NCBI GenBank assembly: GCA_028688375.1
Contig: JAQTYG010000001.1
Coordinates: forward strand, 183,420-247,419
Direction: 5' to 3'
DNA from: Patescibacteria group bacterium
GTDB lineage: Bacteria > Patescibacteriota > Patescibacteriia > Magasanikbacterales > GWA2-37-8
DNA length: 64,000 nucleotides
The position numbers and the translations under genes are program-made. Position 1 is the stretch's first letter. The number at the start of each line of letters is the position of its first letter. The notes beneath the pieces were generated by a model. It was not told the origin of the DNA and made no database searches. It worked only from the letters and a program-made list of their open reading frames with translations. This document shows, in pieces, positions 24,321 through 59,602 of this stretch.

Positions 24321-25277
24321 TTATGCGGGGCGAGGCGCTTTATACCACTCATAAACGGACTTAACCCCCTCTTTCAGCCCGATCTTTTGCTTCCAGCCCA
24401 AAGCATTAATTTTGGAGATGTCCAATAATTTTTGTGGGGTGCCGTCCGGTTTGGAATCGTCCCAGACTACTTCTCCCTTACAATCGACGACTTGCTTTAT
24501 CAATTCGGCCAGCTCTCTGATGGTCACATCATTACCGGCGCCCAAATTAAAATATATTTCCCCCTTCTCGCTTTGTTCTTTAGTCGGATTGAAATTGTTC
24601 ATTAAAAAAACACAACCATCGGCCATATCATCCACGTGTAAAAATTCTCGATGCGGAGCGCCGGTCCCCCAAACCTCTACTGTCGGCGCGTTATTTATTT
24701 TTGCTTCGTGAAATTTACGAATCAGCGCCGGAATGACGTGAGAGTTTTTTAAATCAAAATTATCGTTCGGACCGTATAAATTTGTCGGCATGACAGCGAA
24801 AAAATCGGTGCCGTATTGCCGATTATAGCTCTGGCACATTTTTATTCCGGCAATTTTAGCCAGAGCGTAAGAATCGTTGGTCGGCTCAAGTTTGCCGGTC
24901 ATTAAGTATTCCTCTTTAATCGGTTGGGGGCATTCGCGCGGGTAAATACAGGAAGAACCGAGAAATAATAATTTTTTTACGCCGTTTAGATAAGACTGGT
25001 GAATGATATTATTTTGGATCTGTAAATTTTCGTAAATAAACTGCGCCGGATAAGTGTTGTTGGCTAAAATTCCACCGACTTTGGCCGCGGCCAAGAAAAC
25101 ATACTCCGGTTTGGCTTCAGAAAAAAAATCGGCCACAGCTGATTGATTGGTCAAATCCAATTCGACCAAAGTACGGAATATCAAATTGGTATAGCCTTCG
25201 GCCTGAAGCCGGCGCACTAAAGCCGAGCCGACCAAGCCGGTATGCCCCGCCACATAAATTTTAGCGTTCTTCTCCAT
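24321..25277 (-). CDS. fcl: GDP-L-fucose synthase (GDP-4-keto-6-deoxy-D-mannose 3,5-epimerase/4-reductase)
   Basis: [31 protein letters not shown] is a near-canonical Fcl/WcaG N-terminus; 318 aa. Confidence 0.8.
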
Positions 25278-25282
25278 AATAT

Positions 25283-26347
25283 TTACTCCCTCCCCCTCTT
25301 ATTCTCCCCCTCTGGCAGGGGGAGAGAAGCGCCCTCCGCTTCACACATGATTTTCACCAGCTCTACGAACTTTACTTTCGGTTCCCAACCAAATGCTTGT
25401 TTGGCCTTGGTGGCGTCGCCCAACAGAAAATCCACTTCCGCCGGACGATAATACTCCGGATCAATGGCAATAATCACCTGGCCGGTTTTTTTATCCACGC
25501 CTTTTTCTTCCAGACCACTCCCCTGCCAAATCAATTCAAAACCGAAATATTTAGCCGCTTCTTCGGCGAACTCCCGCACGCTATGCGATTCGCCGGTGGC
25601 AATAACATAATCGTCCGGCTTATCTTGCTGGAGCATCTGCCACATCGCCTCCACATAATCTTTGGCGTAACCCCAATCGCGTTTGGCTTCCAAGTTGCCG
25701 AGGAATAATTTTTCTTGTTTACCGGCTTTTATTTGCGCTAAACCGTGAGTAATTTTTTTCGTAACGAAAGTTCCGCCTCGACGCGGTGATTCATGGTTGA
25801 AAAGAATGCCGTTGCAAATAAACATGCCGTAGGACTCCCGATAATTCACCGCGATATTATGCGCGTAAACCTTGGCGCAACCATACGGACTGCGGGGATA
25901 AAAAGGTGTAGTTTCTTTTTGCGGCGTCTCCAACACTTTACCAAACATTTCTGAAGAACCGGCTTGATAAAATTTTGTTTTAAAACCGGTGTCGCGAATG
26001 GCATCCAGCAAACGCAGGGTGCCCACCCCGTCGGCATCAGCCGTATACTCCGGTAATTCAAAACTGACTTTAACGTGGCTTTGCGCGCCCAAATTGTACA
26101 CCTCGTCCGGTTTAACTTTTTCTATAATGCGGTTGAGGTTACTGCCATCAGTTAAATCACCATAATGCAGGAACATTTTTGCGCCCTGGTTATGCGGGTC
26201 GCTATAAATATGGTCAATTCGTCCGGTGTTGAAACTGCTGGAGCGGCGGATAATACCGTGCACTTCATAACCCTTATCCAACAAAAACTCCGCTAGGTAA
26301 GAGCCATCTTGGCCGGTGATACCGGTGATAAGCGCTTTTTTAGGCAT
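25283..26347 (-). CDS. gmd: GDP-mannose 4,6-dehydratase with a C-terminal extension encoded by an inserted palindromic repeat
   Basis: [35 protein letters not shown] is the canonical Gmd N-terminus; the last 17 codons ([16 protein letters not shown]) derive from repeat family C. Confidence 0.8.
25286..25340. repeat. Intragenic palindromic repeat element family C, copy 1 (CTCCCTCCCCCTCTTATTCTCCCCCTCTGGCAGGGGGAGAGAAGCGCC)
   Basis: 45/48 nt identical to 31337..31384; contains the TCTCCCCCT/AGGGGGAGA inverted repeat; lies inside the gmd 3' end, in frame. Confidence 0.75.
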
Positions 26348-26360
26348 AAAATAATTATGA

Positions 26361-28511
26361 TTATTTTTTAGTCGCAGCGGCCGCGGTGGAGGTGCCGTTG
26401 GGGAATATTTGATTAATGTAATCTTTGTCTTGGTCCGTAAAAACCGCTTTATTCTTGTCGGCCAAAGTCCAAACCGACGGTATTTTTTCCGGCTGTCCGG
26501 TCAATTGGTAGATATAGGCTAAACGCCAGTAACCTTCTCCCGGACGCGGATTGTCAGCAATGGTTTGCAATAATAAACTAACCGCTTCATCCGGTTTATT
26601 TATCTGCGTATCCAACATGGCCAGCGCATAGATAATTTGCTGACGATGCGGAGAGTTAACTAGCGCTTGGCGTAAATAATTTTCCGATTCTTGAACGTAA
26701 AGTTGGTTATTTTCGATATACGCCTTGAATTGCGCCAATTGATAGAGGTTTAGATAGTTGCGCACATCTAAGGGATGGAGAATCGTATTCTTATTCAATT
26801 CGGCATAACAAAAATCCAAAACGCTTTTTATTATTTCATTGTTTAAGCTTTTCTGCTTTTCCGCGGCGTATAACATTTGCACGGCCGAACGACTCAAGTC
26901 GCTTCTAATATCATCAATATGAGGCGACCCGACAGAGACGGCGATTTTCATTTTTTCCAAACTGGCTGATGGATTAAGCGAAAGGGTTTTGATCGCATCC
27001 AACGTGGCCATGTTCGCCCGAGCCGGTTGGATATTAAAAATAAGGATGACGATAAAAGTCAGCAGGCCGACGGTGCAGACCGCGCCCAAACTAATCCGTT
27101 CGTTCGGTTCCGTTTTATAATTTTTATTTTTCTCGTTTCCCGCTATTTGCTCTTTATCGGTTGTAAGCTGATTAATCATCGCCAACCAACACATGAAATA
27201 TAGATACGAAGTAATATTTTCAAACACGGTAAGGTTACTGACAAAATGCGCGGCTAAAAATCCGCAACCAATCGCCAAAAGATGAACATCGATGCGTTCT
27301 CGCCGATAAGCTTGGATCAGCGCGATGGCCGCCACGATAAACAACGCGAAATACGTTAAAAAACCGACCGCACCCTGCACCGCTAATGTGTTCATGACAA
27401 TGTTGTGCGCGTTATCGAACCACGTTTCACTATAACCAAAATCCAGCGAGCGAGCGGTGTAATTGTAATTAAACGCGTAGAAATAATTATTCGGACCCCA
27501 GCCGAAAAACGGCCGTTGTAAAAAGCTTTCCCAAGCAATTTCCCAGGCCACCCAGCGCGGAGTCGCTTTGACATCTGTCCAGGAGGTATTTACCGCGCGG
27601 CCCACAGCCGGCATATTACTAACAAAATCAGTTTTGCGATAATTGTAAAGCAAGCCGACGATCAACACTACCAAAATCATTAAACCGAATAAAGAATATC
27701 GAGTTTTCGGATGTCCGCGAAGAGCCAGGGCGTAGGTAAAAATACACGCGCCGACGCCGGCCAGCAAACCCAATACCGCTCCTCTGGTACCACTGTAAAG
27801 GAGGCCGAGAAAAGCAAAGAACATCAAAAATAAATATATGCCTTGCCAAATTCTATTTTTATCTTTTACAAAAAGTAGAAACGCCAAAAACAAGAGGAAT
27901 AAACCATAGCCACCAACATAAATCGGGTTGCCTAGAGTACTGCCGACACGGCCGCTGCCCCCATTCAAAAGCAAATCCGGATTGGCGATTTGCAAAGCGC
28001 CGACAAACATAACGAGCGAGCCGGCTAAAAGAAGGACCCGCAACAACCATTTCCAATCAGTCCAAGTTTTAAAAAACTGGCTGGCCAATAAATAAAAAAC
28101 AAAGTAATGAAGGATGGTATAAAAGCCAAGCATTCTCTCGTGATTATCCCAAAAACTATGATAGGCGTCCGCGCCGACAAAAGTGGAGATGCCAAAACTA
28201 ATGACATAAAACGCGACCACGGCCGCGGTCAACGGCGTAAAACGCGGTTTGTATTCTTGCCAATTGATGATCAGAAGCAAAATATAAGCGCCGAGCATTA
28301 TTTCCACTAAAGAGCGGAACACCACTATTTTCGGCACGATAAAAGGGAAAATAAACGAACTGGGAATAACGATAAGCGGTACAAAAAAACTGACGTAAAT
28401 CAGGGCCTTGATAACAAATTCTAATTTCTTGCGATTCATATTAAATAAGGATAAAAAACCGGCCAGAACCCGGTTTATTCTTCTGGATCCCCGCCTGCGC
28501 GAGGATGACAA
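26361..28511 (-). CDS. O-antigen ligase/polymerase-like (Wzy_C-type) polytopic membrane protein with C-terminal TPR repeats
   Basis: Many TM helices; periplasmic loop [11 protein letters not shown] resembles the O-antigen ligase family motif; C-terminal about 250 aa TPR-like ([12 protein letters not shown]). Real start is probably the internal MNRKK. Confidence 0.5.
28478..28508. repeat. REP-like hairpin element family A (degenerate copy): CTGGATCCCCGCCTGCGCGAGGATGACA
   Basis: Matches the consensus CTGGATTCCCGCC-TKCGC-GGGAATGACA seen at 46637, 49256, 58753 and 42180. Confidence 0.55.
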
Positions 28512-31015: not shown

Positions 31016-33169
31016 TTATGTTTTTTCTTGTGGCGTCGAAGCGATTTGCTCTGCCAACTCCTGTAAAATTTCTTCACGCGTGCGCTCGAAACCGGCGTCA
31101 TCCAAAATCACGAACCCGCCGTCGGCCTCTTCTTTCACCACGAAAGAATCGGGCACAATATCGCTTAAAAATTTACGCGCCGCGCCGGCGGCCATCTCGG
31201 ACGACATCCCTTCGCTCTTAAAACGGTGGCTTAGCGACAATTCGGCCTGGCGCCGCGCCGTCTCAATCGCTTTAGAAACTTCCGCGCCCTGTTCGGCTCT
31301 TTTTATGGCGCCCAGATGTTCGCGCAAGCGTTGGTCCTCCCTCCCCCTCTTTTTCTCCCCCTCGGGCAGGGGGAGAGACGCGCCGTCTTCTCGCCCGCTT
31401 TCTCCGTCAGCTCGTTCCGCGCTACCGACCGCGGTTTTGACTACCCGGCTGTTGGTGGCTTTTTGCAATTCCAACAGCAAATCATTGATATCTTCTCCGT
31501 TCGGCAAAGCTACTGTCACTTCATCCCCGCCGACTAAAGTAAAAATTTTATCTTTAGAATAATATCGGCCACAAACCTCCGCCACCTTGGCGCGCACCTC
31601 GCGCATTCTTTTTGTGGTGCTGTCCCCGGCTTTCAACGAGGCCTCGGCTAAACTTATTTTACCCGCATCAATGTCGTTCAACAAACGCTCATATTCCAAA
31701 AGCAAATCCACGCCCAAATCCATCACGTCAATGGAGACATACACCGCGTCCGGCATTTTCATCGCCTCGGAATGAAAAATTTCCGGCGAGGCGCAGGTCG
31801 CGTCTTTTTGATCTACTTTCAAAATGGCCGCGACGGCTTGGCGGTCGGCTTGATTAAGGTCCTTCATTTTCGCCAAATCAATCAAGCGCCGGGTTTTATC
31901 GACTTTGTTTTTCAAGGTATCGTCGGCCGAACCAGGCAATGAATTTTTCCCGGCAATTTCATCGGCGGTAAGCGGTTTGAATAAATCTAACAAATTAACT
32001 CGGCGAATATATTGTTCAACTTTTTTTACCGCTTCTTCTTGGCCGGGCGCCGGTTCAAATTTATTTTTTCTGATCGCCCTGACTAAATCACGATTGATCG
32101 TCCGCCGGCCGTCCACGGTTTGCCAAACCTCAAACGGCAAGCCGTTTTTATCTTTAATTACACCGGCCAATTCTTTACCCGAAGCGATAATATTTCCGAT
32201 TTCAGCTTTAATAAATTTAGCGTCATATTCCCCGCCGTATTTTTTCTGCTCGCCATGCCGTAAAACCTGCGCCATCTGTTGGCTTTCGGCCACGGCCAAA
32301 GCGGCCGGGGTGTAGTCGCCGGATTTTGGCGAAGCGCCAACTTTGCTGGCGCCAAAAGTCGCTTTAAAACCCCACTGGCCGAGCTTGTTTTTAAAACTAT
32401 CCAATTTTTTTAATTTGGCTTCTTTGGCCGCCGGCGCCAGGGACGAATTTTTTAATTCTGTTTCTTTGGTTTTGATAGTTTCCAGAATCACTTTTACCAT
32501 GGCCTGATCCAATTGCCGACCGAGAGCGTTCATAATGTCGGCGGTTTTATCCGGGCCGCCCAATTCTTTTATTTTTTCTTGGTTCGGTTTCAAAATCCCA
32601 CTGCGAAAATCCTGATGCAAAATTTCCAGTCCATGGTGTTCGGCCAGCGAAGCCATGTAGTTTTTTCTGTGGTCAATAATTTCGTCAGTTAACTGTTGAC
32701 CGAATAATTCGTCGTTAAAATATTTGACGGAAAAAATACCGGCCGGCATGGAAAAATATATGGCCGTATCGCCCTGGCGCAATTCGCTAAAAATCTTTTG
32801 CCAGCTGCGCGACTCCAAGGACGAGGCGATATTGGCTGATTCGCGATCTGTCAGCTCTGCCATCTCTCCACCCGCCAATTTATTAATAAATTCCGCCCGC
32901 GCCAAAGCGCCACGAGTGCGTTCCAGCGTCGCCGAGTCAACCAATTCCGTTTCCACCCGCCGTTGATATTCGCGCGTTTTCTTTTTGTCCGGACTGACTA
33001 ATTCCACCACTGCTGCGCCCTCGTCAAGACCGTCAATCATCAGGCGGTCCACCGCGTTCTCCACATCCGCTTCAGATATTTCAATCTCCCGTCCTTGAGG
33101 GGCGATTTCCGGCGACTGGGGATAAATTTCTTTCTCAGGCAAAATTGCCGCGGCTTTGTTATTGGTCAT
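31016..33169 (-). CDS. Hypothetical 717 aa protein, coiled-coil/charged N-terminal region and a C-terminal degenerate GGDEF-like (nucleotide cyclase fold) domain; carries an in-frame repeat insertion
   Basis: VSIDVMDLGVD ... GDSTTKRMREV ... LVGGDEVTVALP parallels the DxD...GDE...GGDEF blocks of diguanylate cyclases (GGDEV instead of GGDEF); segment [16 protein letters not shown] comes from repeat family C. Confidence 0.35.
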   Translation of the reverse strand: MTNNKAAAILPEKEIYPQSPEIAPQGREIEISEADVENAVDRLMIDGLDEGAAVVELVSPDKKKTREYQRRVETELVDSATLERTRGALARAEFINKLAGGEMAELTDRESANIASSLESRSWQKIFSELRQGDTAIYFSMPAGIFSVKYFNDELFGQQLTDEIIDHRKNYMASLAEHHGLEILHQDFRSGILKPNQEKIKELGGPDKTADIMNALGRQLDQAMVKVILETIKTKETELKNSSLAPAAKEAKLKKLDSFKNKLGQWGFKATFGASKVGASPKSGDYTPAALAVAESQQMAQVLRHGEQKKYGGEYDAKFIKAEIGNIIASGKELAGVIKDKNGLPFEVWQTVDGRRTINRDLVRAIRKNKFEPAPGQEEAVKKVEQYIRRVNLLDLFKPLTADEIAGKNSLPGSADDTLKNKVDKTRRLIDLAKMKDLNQADRQAVAAILKVDQKDATCASPEIFHSEAMKMPDAVYVSIDVMDLGVDLLLEYERLLNDIDAGKISLAEASLKAGDSTTKRMREVRAKVAEVCGRYYSKDKIFTLVGGDEVTVALPNGEDINDLLLELQKATNSRVVKTAVGSAERADGESGREDGASLPLPEGEKKRGREDQRLREHLGAIKRAEQGAEVSKAIETARRQAELSLSHRFKSEGMSSEMAAGAARKFLSDIVPDSFVVKEEADGGFVILDDAGFERTREEILQELAEQIASTPQEKT
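31337..31384. repeat. Intragenic palindromic repeat element family C, copy 2
   Basis: tccctccccctctttttctccccctcgggcagggggagagacgcgcc; near-identical to 25286..25340; translated in frame within the 717 aa ORF. Confidence 0.75.
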
Positions 33170-33581: not shown

Positions 33582-36110
33582 TTATTGCGCTGTCTGAAAG
33601 TAATGGAAGCTGCGATAATCAGACCAGGGAGTATAGGTTGAATTATTTAATTTGGCGCGCACTCGGAAACGATAGGTGTTATCTGTGCCCGGCGCCCAAT
33701 AGCTGTAAGAATTACTACCGGTGATATAGGTATTAACAAGCGCCCACTGGCTGGAATAACCGTTGCAATAATCGCAGGCCACTTCCACGTCGTAATTTTG
33801 GGCGTTGCTGACCGAATACCAGCCCAGATTAACCGAGCGCGAACTTTGATTGATCGCCGCGTTGTTGGCCGGAGTATAAACTACCGGCGCATTGCCGTAA
33901 GAATTGCCGTTGGAAGAACCGCCGGCGTTAACCGAGAACTCTCGCCAATCAGACCAATTGGAATAAGCGCCATCGGAAAATTTCGTGCGCACGCGCATTC
34001 GATAATTATTATCGTACGAAAAATACATGGTGGCGAAATTGCTCCAGGCGGTCTGGGTGCGTTCCTCATACCAGCCGGTGCCGGATTTGTAATTGACGTT
34101 TATTTCGTAAGAAACAGAATGGCTATCATTTGACCAAGTGGCGTAAACATTGCGGCCGGTAAATGTCTGGCCGGCGTTCGGCATACTGATCAAAGGCGCG
34201 TCATCTAAATGATCATAACCGCCGCCATACGGCCCAACCATAAACTCTCGCCAATCAGACCAATCGCCGTAGGAATTATCCCAAAATTTAGCGCGAGCGC
34301 GCAAACGATAATAACCGTCATTGGTTACGTTGAAATTTAAACTATTTTGGATAGAGCCGTAAATACCGTCAGGCGTGCCATAGACATACCAGGTATTTCC
34401 AGATTTGTAATTAACCTCTACTGCATAAACATAAGCGCTGGGGACAGCGGTCCAACTGGAATAAACGGTGTGGTAGGTTAAGTACTGATCCTCGGTCGGA
34501 TTATATACGGAAATCCCGTTGGAATTGGAATTGTATTTATAATGGAAATAGCGATAATCAGACCAGGTGGTAAAATTGCCATTGCCTAAATTGGCGCGCA
34601 CGCGAAAATGGCACCAGGTATCGTCGCCGTGAACGGCATATAAATTATAGACGGCGCCGAACGGCAAATACGGATAAATAGTTTCAGTGCCATAGCCGTC
34701 GCAAGTCATTTCTATGATGTAACCGGTAACACCGGACACGCCGCTCCAACTTAAAGACACCATGCGACTGCCATTTTCAACCACGGCATTTTGCGCCGGA
34801 GTATAAATTACGGGGGCGGTAGTGTTATTATTGGTGCCGACGGTAAACTCTCGCCAGTCAGACCAATCGCTGTAGACAGAAGTGGTAAAATGGGCGCGGA
34901 CGCGGAAACGATATTTGTTATCGTCGCTAATATTCAGAGTGGGATTAACGTTGTAGACAGAGGTGTTGCTTTTGTTCACCCAAGCGCCATTGGAAAAATA
35001 ATCAAGATCCATTTCATAAGCCTGTGCGCCGGAATTGCTGGTCCAGCTGGCATTCACGAGATGATCATTGAAAACCTGGCCCTGCCACGGCGCGGTGATC
35101 ACCGGCGCGTCGTAATTGTGACTTCCGTTGTCATAATAAAAATGGTTGTATTCGCTCCACCCGCCGTAACTGCCGTTGCGGAAAGCGCGGACGCGGAAAC
35201 TGTATTGGCCAAAAACGCCGGAAGATAAAGTGACAGAAGTGTCGCTCGCGGTAATCGTGTTTTCCACCACCAAAACCCAAAATGAACCATTGTTTCTGGT
35301 CACTTGATATTGGTAAGCGGTGGCGCCGGCCACGACCGACCAATCCAAAGTTACATTATTACTTGTCAAATGGGCTTCATCAGTCGGCAAAAGAAGCGAC
35401 GGGACGGTTAAATCCGTGCCCGAATGCGTATCCACCTTAAAATACCGCCACTCAGACCAGTTGGTGTAGGTGTTGTTGGATAATTGCGCGCGAATTTTCA
35501 CGCGGTAACTGTTATCCCAAATGCCTTCGCCGATCACGTAATTATTGCTGGTTTGATAATCAACAAAATTTTTCCAAACGCCGTTGGAAGAATATTCCAC
35601 CGTAATAAAATAGGTTTGCGCGCTGACGACCGAGTTCCAATGGAAATCCGTGGAGTCCCAATCCATCGTTTGGTTGGCGCCTGGCACGGTAATCACCGGA
35701 GCGGTGGTCACCGGAGTTTGGGCGGAAGTATTAAATCTAAAATATTTATAATCAGACCAGTAACCGGCGGTAGCGCCATCATAAGCGCGGACACGCCAGC
35801 GGAATTGGTTGTCGCCCGGCATGGTTACGGTCAAAGTTCTGGCCGTAGTAGAATAGGTTTTAGCGCCCTGCCATTTGTTGGTTTTGCTGACGCAAACATC
35901 GCAGGTCACTTCCACTTCATACTTGGTGGCGTGGGAGACACTATCCCAGGTGAAGGTGGTTTGACGCGGATAATTAGTCAAGGTTTGATTGGACGCCGGA
36001 GCGGTCAAGTACGGAGCCGATAAAACCGAGGCCTTGGCCGTACCGACAGCAAAAAACGACGCCACAAAAATGACGGCGAGCCAAGCAACGATTTGGGGAT
36101 ATTTACGCAT
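33582..36110 (-). CDS. Secreted/cell-surface protein with about 8 tandem fibronectin type III-like repeats
   Basis: N-terminal signal peptide MRKYPQIVAWLAVIFVASFFAVGTAKA; recurrent about 95 aa units each ending Y/F-RFRVRA ... WSDWREF / WSDYRYF. Confidence 0.7.
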   Translation of the reverse strand: MRKYPQIVAWLAVIFVASFFAVGTAKASVLSAPYLTAPASNQTLTNYPRQTTFTWDSVSHATKYEVEVTCDVCVSKTNKWQGAKTYSTTARTLTVTMPGDNQFRWRVRAYDGATAGYWSDYKYFRFNTSAQTPVTTAPVITVPGANQTMDWDSTDFHWNSVVSAQTYFITVEYSSNGVWKNFVDYQTSNNYVIGEGIWDNSYRVKIRAQLSNNTYTNWSEWRYFKVDTHSGTDLTVPSLLLPTDEAHLTSNNVTLDWSVVAGATAYQYQVTRNNGSFWVLVVENTITASDTSVTLSSGVFGQYSFRVRAFRNGSYGGWSEYNHFYYDNGSHNYDAPVITAPWQGQVFNDHLVNASWTSNSGAQAYEMDLDYFSNGAWVNKSNTSVYNVNPTLNISDDNKYRFRVRAHFTTSVYSDWSDWREFTVGTNNNTTAPVIYTPAQNAVVENGSRMVSLSWSGVSGVTGYIIEMTCDGYGTETIYPYLPFGAVYNLYAVHGDDTWCHFRVRANLGNGNFTTWSDYRYFHYKYNSNSNGISVYNPTEDQYLTYHTVYSSWTAVPSAYVYAVEVNYKSGNTWYVYGTPDGIYGSIQNSLNFNVTNDGYYRLRARAKFWDNSYGDWSDWREFMVGPYGGGYDHLDDAPLISMPNAGQTFTGRNVYATWSNDSHSVSYEINVNYKSGTGWYEERTQTAWSNFATMYFSYDNNYRMRVRTKFSDGAYSNWSDWREFSVNAGGSSNGNSYGNAPVVYTPANNAAINQSSRSVNLGWYSVSNAQNYDVEVACDYCNGYSSQWALVNTYITGSNSYSYWAPGTDNTYRFRVRAKLNNSTYTPWSDYRSFHYFQTAQ

Positions 36111-37115: not shown

Positions 37116-37217
37116 TTTTTAGCTATTATAATCCGCCCGTTTAGGAACGGGCAACGAACATGGCCCGTTCGTCTATCAGTTAGGACACGGCCCTCTCAAG
37201 GCTGAAAGACGGGTGCG

Positions 37218-37236
37218 ATTCCCGTACGGGCTACAA
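37218..37236. repeat. 19 nt direct repeat ATTCCCGTACGGGCTACAA, copy 1 (tRNA-3'-end-like)
   Basis: Identical 19-mer recurs at 37449..37467. Confidence 0.6.
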
Positions 37237-37296: not shown

Positions 37297-37317
37297 CCTG
37301 CCTGCCGGCAGGCAGGC
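37297..37317. repeat. GC-rich palindromic repeat family D (CCTGCCTGCCGGCAGGCAGGC), left flank of the AT-rich defense island
   Basis: 20/21 identical to 42257..42277; core TGCCTGCCGGCAGGCA is a perfect palindrome. Confidence 0.55.
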
Positions 37318-37448
37318 GGGCAGGAGCGAGCAACGAAGTTTTTGCGGAAGCAAAAACGAGGAAGCGAGAGTCGGCGGACTTCCAGTGAAAGTCCGCCGCT
37401 GCCCAGGACAAGGAGCCGAGCCGATTGTGGTCGGCTCGGCGACGCGGA

Positions 37449-42134: not shown

Positions 42135-42139
42135 AATCT

Positions 42140-42480
42140 TATTCTATTCTATACTTATTAGAAAGATTCGCAATATATTTCTGGATTCCCGCCAGAGTTT
42201 ATCCTCGCGAAAGCGGGGGCGGGAATGACAGGGCTTCGCCGCGACCTCACCCCAGCCCTGCCTACCGGCAGGCAGGCCTCTCCTTATCAAGGAGAGGGGC
42301 GCCGGAGGGATTCCTCCACTACGGTCGGAATGACAGGACTTCCCCTCGCCCCCTCTTTATATAAGAGGGGGAAAGATCCTTCGCTTCGCTCAGGATGACA
42401 AGTGGCGGGAATGACAGGGTGACGAGAAGATCCTTCTCTCCGCTCAGGGTGACACCGCAAATTGCGGTGTCACTTTCTCT
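42140..42480. repeat. Repeat-dense intergenic region: at least five REP-like elements (families A, B, D plus the CTCTCCTTATCAAGGAGAGG hairpin and the GTGACACCGC-AAATT-GCGGTGTCAC hairpin)
   Basis: Family A at 42180..42232, D at 42257..42277, B-type at 42371..42400 and 42424..42454, perfect 10 bp hairpin at 42451..42473. Confidence 0.6.
42257..42277. repeat. GC-rich palindromic repeat family D (CCTGCCTACCGGCAGGCAGGC), right flank of the defense island
   Basis: 20/21 identical to 37297..37317. Confidence 0.55.
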
Positions 42481-46636: not shown

Positions 46637-46664
46637 CTGGATTCCCGCCTGCGCGGGAATGACA
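46637..46664. repeat. REP-like hairpin family A: CTGGATTCCCGCCTGCGCGGGAATGACA
   Basis: Stem ATTCCCGC/GCGGGAAT; intergenic between the P-type ATPase and rlmN. Confidence 0.65.
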
Positions 46665-46675
46665 AGGTGAAAAAA

Positions 46676-49247: not shown

Positions 49248-51491
49248 TTACTTTTCTGGATTCCCGCCTTCGCGGGAATGACAAATATGTACATTTTTTT
49301 TAACGAGGCTCTCCGTGTCCAAACCAGCTTGACCGTAGACTTCCGTCGCTCGGCCGGATTTAAGAAAATGATCCACGCCGATGAGGCGGTTCTGATAACC
49401 GGCCGGTTGGATAAACTCGCGGGTAAATTCATTCCAGCCGTTGTGCAGAGCGATAACAGTGGCCCTTTCTTCATCGGATAAAATGGCTTGCGCTTTTTTC
49501 GGATCGGTTTTTTCCAGTTCCACAAATAATTCCGGCGAAGTGACGACAACGATTTTTACGTCCAATTTTTGTTTGGCTAAATCGGGCAGGGCTAGTAAAA
49601 CATTTTGCAGAAGCGTGGCGCCACAAACCGCCAGCGCGATTTTTTTGCCGGCGCCGGTGTATTCTTTATAGATGTAAGCGCCATCGCAGGCGGATGAGGC
49701 CGGCGTATTTTTTCTGTCTAACACCGGAGTCTCCGAACGGGACAGGGCCAAAACAATCGGCTCGCCTTTCTCCAAAGCGAAAAACAGCATCTCAATTACT
49801 TCATTGGCATCGGTCGGCTTGTAAACTTTTATCCCGGGATAAGCGTCAAACAAAGACATCCAATACATGCCCTGGTGGGTCGGGCCGTCTTCGCCTGTTT
49901 CCGGGCCGTCATGTGTGGCCAGAGCGATAAAAAAGCCCTGTGTAGCCGGATTGGCGGCATTGGCCACCAGCGCCAAATGCACGGCGTGACCATACATAGC
50001 GGTAAAAACGCCGTAAGTGCCGAACACTGATACCGGCCGGAAACCGCCGGGTAAAACATCCTGCGTCAAGGCCATAGACATCATGGCCATATTTTGTTCA
50101 GCGATGCCAAAACGAATGCCCCGGCCGAACTTATTTTGCGCGTTGATGATGCCATAAACATGCTCCGACTGGCCGAGCAAAACCGATTTGCTCAAATCCC
50201 CCGCTCCGGCGTAAAAAAACGCGGTCTGCTCCATCAACCATTTGCACCAGAGCTCGGAGGCCTGGCGCATGCTAATTTTGTCGCCGGGCTTGAAGGCAAG
50301 TTCGGGCGGGAGGTTTTTCGGACGCTTGATGCCACGCGGATTTATCAGCGGACGATTGGGCAAAGTTTTTTTCATCCGCGCTATCAGTTCAGATTCCGGT
50401 TCAATTTTGTCCGCGCCTTTTTCCAATTGCCAATCAATAAACGAAGCATCGTCTTCAGTCAACGCGTCCAAAATCTTTTGAATATCACGGGCGACATTTC
50501 CCTTTTCTCCGGGCGCGCTAAAACCAAGCTGTTTCAAAATTTTTACATAATCTTCATGGTCGGTCGGCGAACCATGCGAGGCAGTGGTGTTTTCTTTGGC
50601 GCCGTATTCTTTGCCTTTGATAGTGTGGGCGATAATTGCTGTCGGCCGGCTGTTGTCAAAACCTTGGCGGGCGATGGCGTAGGCGTAAAGAAGTTCGTTG
50701 ACATTGTGGCCATTTGCTTCAATCACATTCCAACCAAAACCGAGCCAATAATTCAAATACGGCGCGCTCATGGCTTCTTCAATCGGGCCGTCAATACCAA
50801 AATGATTGTAATCAAGTGAGACGATAATATTGTCGGTGGCGGTGGCGACCAAAACATTGCGCGCTTCAAAAGTCATGCCCTCTTCGCTCTCGGCATCGCC
50901 CATCATCACCCAAACTTTGGTCGGCAGACCGCAACTGGCGTGCGCGATAGCCATACCGCCGGCGGCGGAAAAACCATGGCCGGACGGACCGGTGCAATAG
51001 TCGGCATAGGGATATTGGCTTTCGGCATGACCGGGCGGACCGTCCAAACGGCGGAATTGCGACAAGTGTTCGGGCAGAACGCAATTAACCACGGCTTCAG
51101 AAAATTGGCGACCGGCTCGGCGCATGGCTTCATAGTATAGCGCCTGTCCGCCGTACAAAAGCGGGGTGCAGTGGCCGGCGCTCCAAATCAACCGGTCTCG
51201 GCCGGGATGTTTGGGGTCGGCCGGATCAAAGGCCAGCGAACCGCCCAGGGTAAGCGCTAAAAATTGTTCCACTTTGGAGCTACTGCCCCCGGGATGGCCG
51301 GACCGGGCGCCTTCCACGGTGGCAAAAATAAGGCCACGGAGAATTTTGGCCAGACGGTCTAAACGAGAAATGTCTAGGCCGTTATATGGCTCCAATTCAG
51401 CGTCTTGCAATTTAATATATGTAGCGCCGTCGTTTTTTCCGTTTACTGTCAATTTTTTCAGGTCTTTGGCAACAAGGGGGTTAAGGGGCAT
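49248..51491 (-). CDS. tkt: Transketolase (full length, with an approximately 60 aa N-terminal extension)
   Basis: GHPGGS ThDP motif, GDG..EG block, FGIAEQNMAMM pyrimidine-binding region; 747 aa. Confidence 0.8.
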   Translation of the reverse strand: MPLNPLVAKDLKKLTVNGKNDGATYIKLQDAELEPYNGLDISRLDRLAKILRGLIFATVEGARSGHPGGSSSKVEQFLALTLGGSLAFDPADPKHPGRDRLIWSAGHCTPLLYGGQALYYEAMRRAGRQFSEAVVNCVLPEHLSQFRRLDGPPGHAESQYPYADYCTGPSGHGFSAAGGMAIAHASCGLPTKVWVMMGDAESEEGMTFEARNVLVATATDNIIVSLDYNHFGIDGPIEEAMSAPYLNYWLGFGWNVIEANGHNVNELLYAYAIARQGFDNSRPTAIIAHTIKGKEYGAKENTTASHGSPTDHEDYVKILKQLGFSAPGEKGNVARDIQKILDALTEDDASFIDWQLEKGADKIEPESELIARMKKTLPNRPLINPRGIKRPKNLPPELAFKPGDKISMRQASELWCKWLMEQTAFFYAGAGDLSKSVLLGQSEHVYGIINAQNKFGRGIRFGIAEQNMAMMSMALTQDVLPGGFRPVSVFGTYGVFTAMYGHAVHLALVANAANPATQGFFIALATHDGPETGEDGPTHQGMYWMSLFDAYPGIKVYKPTDANEVIEMLFFALEKGEPIVLALSRSETPVLDRKNTPASSACDGAYIYKEYTGAGKKIALAVCGATLLQNVLLALPDLAKQKLDVKIVVVTSPELFVELEKTDPKKAQAILSDEERATVIALHNGWNEFTREFIQPAGYQNRLIGVDHFLKSGRATEVYGQAGLDTESLVKKNVHICHSREGGNPEK
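49256..49283. repeat. REP-like hairpin family A: CTGGATTCCCGCCTTCGCGGGAATGACA
   Basis: Between the tkt stop and the ATPase start; preceded by an 8 bp GC hairpin ACCCCCGA..TCGGGGGT. Confidence 0.65.
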
Positions 51492-52352: not shown

Positions 52353-52388
52353 CCGCCACGTGCGTAGTTATGCGTGGCGGGTTTTTTG
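52353..52388 (+). terminator. Rho-independent terminator CCGCCACG-loop-CGTGGCGG followed by GTTTTTT
   Basis: Read directly; downstream of the NDT gene. Confidence 0.65.
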
Positions 52389-52391
52389 TGT

Positions 52392-52427
52392 AAAAAAATG
52401 AGCCCGCGACGGACGACGTCGGAGCTC
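52392..52427 (-). terminator. Rho-independent terminator (GAGCTCCGACG..CGTCGCGGGCTC hairpin followed by a U-tract on the minus strand) after small paralog A
   Basis: Same element recurs at 52907..52943 after paralog B. Confidence 0.55.
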
Positions 52428-52456
52428 GAGAGAAAGAACGGGGGTGTGGCGGTAGG

Positions 52457-52840: not shown

Positions 52841-52906
52841 TCCCTCCTTTTGGGTTGTTGCTGTTTTAGGTTCGAATGCACTTTACTATGAGTGTATTTT
52901 TTTGTC

Positions 52907-52943
52907 AAAAAAAATGAGCCCGCGACGGACGACGTCGGAGCTC
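52907..52943 (-). terminator. Rho-independent terminator after small paralog B (duplicate of 52392..52427), immediately followed by the TTGACA -35 of the paralog A promoter
   Basis: Read directly. Confidence 0.55.
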
Positions 52944-52973
52944 TGAAAGAAGGAGCGGGGGTATGGCGGTAGG

Positions 52974-58752: not shown

Positions 58753-58780
58753 CTGGATTCCCGCCTTCGCGGGAATGACA
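58753..58780. repeat. REP-like hairpin family A: CTGGATTCCCGCCTTCGCGGGAATGACA, overlapping the start codon of the next gene
   Basis: The ATGACA of the repeat supplies the ATG at 58775. Confidence 0.65.
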
Positions 58781-59602
58781 ATGATTATGTTATCCGCGCG
58801 AGCTGAAAAAGTTATCCGCGATTATTTCAACCTTCCTTTTGAGGGTTTGACTGGCGTGCGCTGTCCTTATTTTAACAACGCCCGGCGCAATCGGCGCGGA
58901 CAACTGCGCGGGCTGATCGGTAAAGGCACACCGGAAGAAATCGCGGAGGAGGCGCGAATCATTTCCACTCAATATCGCCATAATATTTTTGATAAAGATG
59001 GCCACTGCTGTGTGCACGCGACGCATAATGACGAAGAAAAAATTGAAGACGTGAGAAAATTTTTGATTGATAATGATCTGGGAATTGATTGTTCCGGATT
59101 TGTCAGCCATGTCCTGATTGAACATTACAAAGAAACCAGGGGCGTGGATATCGCCCGCCGGTTTCACTTTTGGCCGATAAAAAATTTCTGGCGCTGGCTG
59201 GTGGCGCGTTTGCGTCCGGTGGAAAACATGTCGGTCCGCGTAATGGCTAAGGACGCTAACACTAACAAGATCGCCGATGGGCGAAGCGGTTTTGATTGGT
59301 CGCGCTTAGAATCGGCGGATTTAGTGATCATGATGGAAACCGGACCGAACAAAAAAAGAAACCACGTGTTGCTGATTGAAGACAACGAGGGCTCGGTGAT
59401 TAGATACACGCACGCCCGCGCCTGGTCGGCTGAAGGCAAATACGGACATGGGGTGGCGCGCGGAGAGATCCGTCTAACCAAACCGGGCGGTAATTTGTTG
59501 GAACAAGCCTGGGAAGAACTGGGCCGAGCCGGAGAAGATAATGAAACATTTTTAGAAGCAACAGGGGCTAAACTGTTGGAAGTAAGACGGATAAGAATAT
59601 AG
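58775..59602 (+). CDS. Hypothetical protein with NlpC/P60-like papain-fold cysteine peptidase motif
   Basis: GIDCSGFVSHVL resembles the NlpC/P60 catalytic Cys block; a downstream His (NHVLLI) is present. Weak. Confidence 0.35.
   Translation: MTMIMLSARAEKVIRDYFNLPFEGLTGVRCPYFNNARRNRRGQLRGLIGKGTPEEIAEEARIISTQYRHNIFDKDGHCCVHATHNDEEKIEDVRKFLIDNDLGIDCSGFVSHVLIEHYKETRGVDIARRFHFWPIKNFWRWLVARLRPVENMSVRVMAKDANTNKIADGRSGFDWSRLESADLVIMMETGPNKKRNHVLLIEDNEGSVIRYTHARAWSAEGKYGHGVARGEIRLTKPGGNLLEQAWEELGRAGEDNETFLEATGAKLLEVRRIRI

Follow-up and report, generated by a model that had tools for sequence, protein, structure and literature searches.

Intrastrand triplex motifs of class II consist of a pyrimidine, a purine and a reverse-Hoogsteen domain, which follow each other in this order and pair through the triplets G·G-C, A·A-T and T·A-T (PMC4666352). 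The member of this class in E. coli was named BoxC, next PIT elements and next TM_ECO, and has the consensus CCCTCNCCC-N3-6-GGGNGAGGG-N3-GGGNGAGGG (PMC4666352). Such elements have been described from E. coli, other Proteobacteria and Cyanobacteria (Hoyne & Maher 2000; Holder et al. 2015, PMC4666352). Single-stranded DNA of TM_ECO forms a stable triplex in vitro, none was detected in vivo, and a purine-motif triplex is unable to form in RNA (PMC4666352). In E. coli, TM_ECO and PIT elements have neither promoter nor terminator activity and show no strand bias, and in strain K-12 TM_ECO is always intergenic (PMC4666352). Its loops vary more than its stems, it is sometimes arranged in inverted pairs, rearrangement is locally increased, and no tie to mobile elements was found by Holder et al. 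(PMC4666352).

Short palindromic repeats are also known from within genes. Intragenic REPs of 20-40 bp, tagged by GTAG or CGTC, are in frame in known proteins of several species, lie also at ORF ends and were considered tolerated passengers (Di Nocera et al. 2013, PMC3733652); their catalogue includes RPE-4 and RPE-6 (PMC3733652). Rickettsia palindromic elements (RPEs), as far as they are described in the summary of Ogata et al. 2000 in PMC10969869, are ~100-150 bp long, occur in Rickettsia only and code for a conserved peptide of 30-50 aa. Here we describe a repeat from a Magasanikbacteria genome (CPR/Patescibacteria), which was studied in a window of 64 kb, i.e., the whole stretch of DNA analysed. 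The best Gmd hits, by their names, place the lineage in Candidatus Magasanikbacteria.

A three-block repeat in two unrelated genes

The repeat occurs at 25286-25336 and at 31337-31387, both on the minus strand, and the two copies are identical at 47 of 51 positions. Over the shorter span of the initial annotation, the identity is 45/48 as claimed there, with 0 copies expected by chance. Its palindrome, TCTCCCCCT-N5-AGGGGGAGA, has a 9-bp stem and a 5-nt loop. With up to 3 mismatches (<=3) allowed, this palindrome is found twice within the window, as opposed to 0 times in 100 shuffles, and the count of two for the exact repeat family refers to these 64 kb only.

Read 5' to 3' on the coding (minus) strand, both copies have the order TCTCCCCCT-N5-AGGGGGAGA-N3-AGAGGGGGA-GGGAG. 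The initial annotation had described a hairpin-forming element. The palindrome is indeed present, but the description was incomplete, as the third conserved block (AGAGGGGGA) had been missed. This block starts 3 nt after the hairpin and is the mirror image of the purine arm, being neither a direct nor an inverted copy of it. The four differences between the copies all fall into the loops or the 5' extension and none into the three 9-nt blocks; the variable positions are found in the 5' extension G-A-(G/C)-GGCGC(T/G)TC, in loop 1, GCC(A/C)G, and in loop 2, A(T/A)A. The genes and the parts of the repeat are as follows:

24321..25277, minus strand: fcl (GDP-L-fucose synthase), ATG 5 nt past the gmd stop
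25283..26347, minus strand: gmd (GDP-mannose 4,6-dehydratase), 354 aa, matching Pfam GDP_Man_Dehyd and TIGR01472, stop TAA at 25285..25283
25286..25336, minus strand: repeat copy 1, 51 nt, encoding 16 residues of gmd
25336..25326, minus strand: copy 1, 5' extension GAGGGCGCTTC
25325..25317, minus strand: copy 1, pyrimidine (Y) block TCTCCCCCT
25316..25312, minus strand: copy 1, loop 1, GCCAG
25311..25303, minus strand: copy 1, purine (R) block AGGGGGAGA
25302..25300, minus strand: copy 1, loop 2, ATA
25299..25291, minus strand: copy 1, reverse-Hoogsteen block AGAGGGGGA
25290..25286, minus strand: copy 1, tail GGGAG
31016..33169, minus strand: 717-aa hypothetical protein, NCBI PHD72_01130, no Pfam/NCBIfam match
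31337..31387, minus strand: repeat copy 2, 51 nt, with 47/51 positions as in copy 1, inside the 717-aa ORF, where it encodes (D) and 16 residues
31376..31368, minus strand: copy 2, Y block
between the Y and R blocks, minus strand: copy 2, loop 1, GCCCG
31362..31354, minus strand: copy 2, R block
between the R and reverse-Hoogsteen blocks, minus strand: copy 2, loop 2, AAA
31350..31342, minus strand: copy 2, reverse-Hoogsteen block
31341..31337, minus strand: copy 2, tail GGGAG

Nearest-neighbour folding (ViennaRNA) yielded the 9-bp hairpin only and left the third block single-stranded. The z-scores of the hairpin are unremarkable because shuffled G/C runs fold just as well. Intrastrand triplex motifs are defined in ITxF by a homopyrimidine stretch of 6-15 nt and a homopurine block with full Watson-Crick complementarity, separated by a loop of 1-6 nt, and by a third block that follows after another 1-6 nt. 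This third block is antiparallel to the purine block, places G opposite G-C and A or T opposite A-T, and may contain up to one mismatch (<=1). Both copies conform, with TCTCCCCCT and AGGGGGAGA around GCCAG or GCCCG and with AGAGGGGGA after a 3-nt loop, and the triplet rule holds at 9/9 positions in each. A custom scan by ITxF-like rules returned 3 motifs of class II from the window, compared with 0 from 100 shuffles. By the published structural definition, the element can be classed from its sequence as a class II purine-motif intrastrand triplex motif, i.e., as belonging to the structural class of BoxC, PIT and TM_ECO. The conservation of stems versus loops in the two copies matches the pattern published for TM_ECO (PMC4666352). 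The TM_ECO/BoxC consensus itself does not fit, with blocks that differ at several positions, and both window copies lie within ORFs and not, as in that family, exclusively in intergenic DNA.

Two further triplex-type motifs of the window are intergenic:

42338..42371, minus strand: third class II triplex-type motif, CCCCCTCT-N7-AGAGGGGG-CGA-GGGGAAGT, 1 mismatch, with a different stem
42245..42299, minus strand: fourth triplex-type motif, CCCCTCTCCTTGATAAGGAGAGG[CCTGCCTGCCGGTAGGCAGG]GCTGGGGTGAGG, with a palindrome nested in loop 2

Both lie in an intergenic BIME-like mosaic at 42135-42470, which comprises at least six different palindromic units including these two motifs, one of them with CCTGCCTGCCGGTAGGCAGG in loop 2. 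A second palindromic family, CTGGATTCCCGCCTKCGCGGGAATGACAA, has four copies at gene boundaries (28483-28511, 46637-46665, 49256-49284 and 58753-58781). Three clustered GC-rich hairpins are found at 37297-37440, just downstream of tRNA-Glu (37162-37234). The unit of the first of these, CCTGCCTGCCGGCAGGCAGG, is also nested in triplex motifs of other phyla (L049), and a close variant lies beside the motif at L037. Overall, the window holds 14 perfect GC-rich hairpins where ~1 is expected. Judging from these hairpins, the second palindrome family and the intergenic mosaic, the genome has generally been colonised by such repeats, and the element is one of several small palindromic repeat families that have colonised this Magasanikbacteria genome.

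Further features of the window were recorded alongside. A 63-nt direct repeat (52382-52444 and 52898-52960; 84% identical, 516 nt apart) begins with TTTTTTGT.AAAAAAATGAGCCCGCGACGGACGACGTCGGAGCTC. At the left edge, a 300-nt direct repeat (22-321 and 823-1122) is 83% identical over a distance of 801 nt, and an 842-aa ORF at 33582-36110, for which no Pfam match was found, carries internal repeats with a period of ~300 nt (families D2, D3 and D7). The G+C content is 36-41% at 1-24 kb, in a polysaccharide gene cluster, and ~50% at 42-54 kb. A replication origin at the GC-skew turn at ~57 kb was considered and rejected; DnaA is not encoded there and the turn coincides with a change of gene orientation.

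The gmd-fcl junction and the linker of the 717-aa protein

Both the TIGR01472 gmd model and Pfam GDP_Man_Dehyd match Gmd only to residue 337 of 354. Past the end of the enzyme proper, at about residue 338 (..KIMCEAE), the final 16 codons are the repeat. The tail reported in the initial annotation is thus real; the 17 residues given there correspond to 16 residues and the stop, i.e., 17 codons. The nearest 120 Gmd orthologues (77-90% identity) end in ...KIMCEAE followed by 0 to ~15 variable residues, and the peptide encoded by the repeat is present in 0/120 of them. The presence of this tail in orthologues had been named as the observation that would speak against a lineage-specific extension; the test was run, and the extension holds as lineage-specific.

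In the closest syntenic relatives, whose Gmd is 90% and 85% identical, the stop codon comes right after CEAE(EYA/E) and is followed by an unrelated spacer of 65 or 48 nt before fcl. Homology between the window and these relatives ends after GAAGCGGAG and restarts at TTATGGAGAA. Two more relatives have gmd-fcl spacers of 167 and 196 nt, so that spacers in relatives range from 48 to 196 nt. The native spacer is missing in the window, where gmd reads through the repeat to a TAA located 5 nt before the fcl ATG. Given the normal stop and the unrelated spacers of the relatives, the element therefore replaces the gmd stop codon and the entire gmd-fcl spacer. The earlier proposal of an in-frame insertion at the 3' end of gmd holds as to the reading frame, in which the repeat is translated, but has to be amended in that a replacement and not a simple insertion took place. 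The exact ancestral empty site is not reconstructable, because the spacer is hypervariable among relatives (48, 65, 167 and 196 nt, all unrelated). One element-free relative (L138) was obtained from the sample that also yielded the element-bearing contig.

At the gmd/fcl junction of another Magasanikbacteria contig (L145:2508-2547) lies a different palindrome, TCTGTCATTCCTGCGAAAGCAGGAATC. There, the Gmd tail reads VPSVIPAKAGI* with the stop TAA, and the fcl ATG follows 4 nt on. This tail is a translated member of the CTGGATTCCCGCCTKCGCGGGAATGACAA family. By eye, the gmd-fcl spacer of another locus (L139) seems to contain a degenerate copy of the same VPSVIPAKAGI palindrome family.

Copy 2 is situated in an unconserved acidic linker of the 717-aa protein, at about residues 596-612. 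Three homologues of this protein are known (67% identical, 36% identical and one syntenic 679-aa ORF), and the segment is absent from 3/3 of them. At the corresponding place, all three have a linker without conservation, which is mostly acidic and shorter by 8-18 residues. Absence from the 120 Gmd orthologues and from the three homologues of the 717-aa protein identifies both copies as lineage-specific acquisitions, and both are placed at positions where relatives vary in length.

A further statement of the initial annotation was that two unrelated proteins contain a translated copy of one DNA element, and this is the case, with both copies being in frame in gmd and in the 717-aa ORF. The blocks, made only of purines or only of pyrimidines, contain no stop codon, and in the two window copies a single sense frame is closed, by the loop-2 TAA of copy 1. 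With no stop codon in frame, the element is therefore read through as protein. A protein search with the 97-aa six-frame concatenate of the repeat gave no match at E<=10.

Same-stem modules in other genomes

We scanned viral contigs and bacterial genomes (one genome per species) with a pattern of the stem only (TCTCCCCCT-N5-AGGGGGAGA) and obtained 15 stretches in viral contigs and at least 120 in the bacterial genomes. By our own tally, ~30 full-module loci among the matches listed belong to CPR (Saccharibacteria, Falkow-, Uhr-, Morani-, Doudna- and Nomurabacteria, and others). Non-CPR full-module loci among the matches listed come from at least 12 groups, including Dehalococcoidia, Binatia, Ignavibacteria, Planctomycetes, Brocadia, Abditibacteria and Bacteroidota. 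The third block, AGAGGGGG(T), was not part of the search pattern. With <=1 mismatch and a distance of 0-6 nt, it accompanies 89 of the 146 stem matches listed (61%) on one or both sides, where a rough calculation puts the chance expectation well below 1%.

The rule extends beyond the searched stem. In ~10 more loci among the matches listed, a further hairpin, variable and with compensatory changes, is placed between the stem and the third block. Other purine stems in the same loci are next to a mirror of their own purine arm, e.g. TCCCCTCCTT..AAGGAGGGGA-taa-AGGGGAGGT and TCCTCTCCC..GGGAGAGGA-tta-AGGTGAGGG. In these hairpins, G is the base that reads a stem G at 95% of positions, and a stem A is read by A and by T with about the same frequency. 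With 0-1 mismatch allowed, 151/440 of the other stems have an antiparallel match, as compared with 52/440 for the parallel control (loci from the matches listed), a set of 440 that partly consists of the searched stem shifted by one base. A switch between alternative hairpins was also considered and was ruled out, as the third block mirrors the purine arm and direct copies are much rarer. These sequence comparisons show the three-block rule and its covariation; the hairpins nested in loop 2 and the recurrence of identical blocks across phyla are new here.

The 40-nt core of the subfamily to which the window copies belong (loop GCCNG, third block ...GGGGGAGGGAG) is found exactly in 5 JGI contigs, the flanks of which are unrelated, and close variants exist in Cerribacteria, Uhrbacteria and other Patescibacteria. 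TM_ECO-like units are present in other loci that we fetched, e.g. L045 and L100. Larger arrangements were seen as well. In Abditibacteria (L036:20-200, L040, L076 and L102), the triplex module and a small additional hairpin together make up the two terminal inverted repeats of a palindrome that is ~130-190 nt long, MITE/REPIN-like and present at several loci in two Abditibacteria genomes. The MAG MFD04944.bin.1.291 (L018, L029, L034, L107 and L114) contains many near-identical composite units with two different triplex motifs in inverted arrangement, which resemble the pairs of type A and type B reported for TM_ECO of E. coli.

Same-stem modules are also translated elsewhere. They lie in frame in long ORFs confirmed by Pfam as IleRS, CysRS, MnmA, FeFe-hydrogenase, pyruvate/2-oxoacid:ferredoxin oxidoreductase (POR) and UvrA, and the Pfam domain matches in these enzymes are 15-63 residues longer than the models. 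Modules in coding hosts occur in both orientations without preference and in at least three frames (SPPxxGGD, NLPLxKGE and LPLPEGE). Two JGI copies of the exact 40-nt core are inside long ORFs (one QueA-like by eye, one of 737 aa), in a frame that differs from that of the window copies. The IleRS of L070 and the UvrA of L055 contain further translated palindromic repeats (..DSSSASGGLRMTN.. and ..DSSADSLGMTN.., respectively), which suggests that multiple repeat families invade coding sequence in these lineages.

Origin of the element and comparison with known systems

We consider it likely that the element represents a short, non-coding and dispersed DNA repeat from the class of intrastrand triplex motifs, that its two copies are recent acquisitions and that the peptide is a passenger. 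One acquisition would have taken the place of the gmd stop codon and the spacer before fcl, and the other would have entered the variable linker of the 717-aa protein. Single-stranded DNA of the element may form a hairpin with the third block lying in its major groove and pairing through G·G-C and A·A-T triplets. This fold would form only transiently in single strands, and the element would act, if at all, as DNA. Read-through would add a peptide rich in Pro, Gly, Glu and Arg, probably unstructured and neutral, at sites that tolerate variation. Spread most likely involves either copying via transient single-stranded DNA in replication or repair or an enzyme that mobilises the element in trans. 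Mobility is inferred from the distribution only; neither a target-site duplication nor a terminal tag shared by the copies was found, nor a transposase domain among the 16 window proteins scanned.

In a rival explanation, the repeat is a transposable element of the RPE, REP or MITE type and a dedicated enzyme, e.g. a RAYT-like HUH tyrosine transposase, recognises and inserts the folded single strand with a preference or tolerance for coding DNA. In-frame copies in unrelated genes, as known for RPEs and intragenic REPs (PMC3733652), would fit this explanation, and so would the Abditibacteria module that serves as both terminal inverted repeats of a MITE/REPIN-like palindrome and the many near-identical copies in one MAG (L018, L029, L034, L107, L114). 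The tetranucleotide CGTC, the tag of one REP superfamily, is found directly 5' of the Y block of copy 2; copy 1, however, has CTTC at this edge, and neither tetranucleotide is present in the JGI copies, the flanks of which are unrelated. At 40-51 nt, the element is far below the length of RPEs, and it also lacks the marks of a MITE, with no target-site duplication at either copy and the hairpin arms as the sole inverted repeat. A non-exhaustive scan of 16 window proteins revealed no transposase domain, and TM_ECO is without a link to mobile elements (Holder et al., PMC4666352). We thus regard a dedicated transposable element as unlikely. A function in RNA is more improbable still. Here, the repeat would be a cis-acting element of the gmd-fcl operon, whose hairpin stabilises or processes the mRNA or whose purine tract GGAGGGAG is a ribosome-binding site coupling translation of fcl to that of gmd. 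The tract ends 8 nt before the fcl ATG, and in several other loci an ATG follows 2-15 nt after AGAGGGGG. A ribosome-binding site for fcl was nevertheless rejected: 43/46 long ORFs of the window lack a Shine-Dalgarno-like motif, so the lineage does not rely on such motifs and this role is unlikely. The leaders of these ORFs are A/T-rich. A terminator was likewise rejected, since the coding-strand hairpin is followed by ATA-AGAGGGGGAGGGAG and not by a T-run, and a known RNA family was rejected as the window and 18 related loci gave no Rfam match at the gathering score and only noise at E<=10. Copy 2 is located mid-gene, modules in other genomes lie in either orientation to the host gene, and the fact that modules in coding hosts have no preferred orientation speaks against an RNA-level role. 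PIT elements, moreover, are without promoter or terminator activity in E. coli (PMC4666352).

The two remaining explanations carry little weight. The shared peptide LPLPEGE.KRGRE could be a selected protein motif that arose by convergence or domain shuffling, with the palindrome being incidental, and the same frame and strand of both window copies would agree with this. The peptide is, however, absent from all orthologues, and the nucleotide identity of 92% includes synonymous sites. Other proteins have this DNA translated in different frames (SPPARGG.., NLPLxKGE..), it is also intergenic, and what covaries is the triplet rule of the nucleic acid, not the peptide. This explanation is already effectively refuted. 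An artefact of assembly or sequencing at a G/C-rich palindrome might be suspected in a MAG-derived sequence, as palindromes can mis-assemble, and its probability is negligible. An independent assembly (SRR22315506, Logan) agrees with the window at every position of a 5062-nt stretch that contains the element, and the repeat is therefore not an assembly artefact; long ORFs are preserved in both copies, and the same core recurs in unrelated public datasets.

Taking the dispersed triplex-type repeat as the preferred reading, we propose a broader one only tentatively, and with some doubt: triplex-type repeats might form a cross-phylum family that routinely invades coding genes (aminoacyl-tRNA synthetases, UvrA, MnmA) in CPR, other uncultivated lineages and phages, and the folded single-stranded triplex, not a tag, might be what is recognised for copying. 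If true, this family would be a structurally defined and widespread equivalent of RPEs, and some of the many short insertions that CPR proteins carry would stem from it. For annotation, protein tails or segments in CPR such as SPPxxGGD, VIPAKAGI or the repeat-encoded tail of Gmd are read-through repeats and not domains, and are unfit for calls of homology or function. For repeat biology, an intrastrand-triplex architecture that is strictly intergenic in E. coli is tolerated here inside essential genes. The same 9-nt blocks in many phyla, together with the reverse-Hoogsteen third block, provide comparative evidence for constraint on the three-block fold itself, and the element supplies a concrete oligonucleotide and loci for work on triplex formation and the spread of repeats.

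How, then, does the element compare with the described systems? With RPEs, as far as these are described in PMC10969869, it shares a selfish-looking palindrome that is in frame in unrelated genes and adds a peptide segment. In contrast to them, it has 40-51 nt instead of ~100-150 bp, crosses phyla and is read in at least three frames, so that a conserved peptide is not encoded. The resemblance to RPEs put forward in the initial annotation therefore applies to its behaviour, with in-frame copies in unrelated genes, but not to its anatomy, which is the three-block triplex architecture of a known class (PMC4666352). That such behaviour had been unreported for this lineage agrees with our literature searches, by topic and by raw sequence, in which nothing relevant on palindromic elements of this kind in CPR/Patescibacteria was found; in-frame short palindromes as such are already documented in several non-rickettsial species (PMC3733652). 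With intragenic REPs, the element has in common that a short palindromic repeat lies in frame and also at an ORF end; unlike REPs, it possesses a third mirror block. A conserved GTAG/CGTC tag was not evident in the copies compared (CGTC at copy 2 only), and no RAYT association was seen among the 16 window proteins scanned.

The closest likeness is to BoxC/PIT/TM_ECO. Shared are the 9-nt pyrimidine block, a loop of 3-6 nt, the complementary purine block, a 3-nt loop and the antiparallel purine block, in addition to a multi-copy, dispersed distribution, conserved stems with variable loops, inverted pairs, no strand bias and no known function. The element differs from TM_ECO in its blocks (TCTCCCCCT/AGGGGGAGA/AGAGGGGGA versus CCCTCNCCC/GGGNGAGGG/GGGNGAGGG), in its CPR/Patescibacteria host and in its copies, which lie in coding sequence and are translated whereas TM_ECO is intergenic; some relatives of the window element, moreover, carry a whole extra hairpin nested in loop 2. 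Taken together, the in-frame passenger behaviour and the structural class are each already known, and what is new is the stem family, the CPR host and the coding location of a triplex-type repeat. Going by our literature searches, the element is first noted here in CPR, and it is a real but rather ordinary example of bacterial repeats of a known kind.
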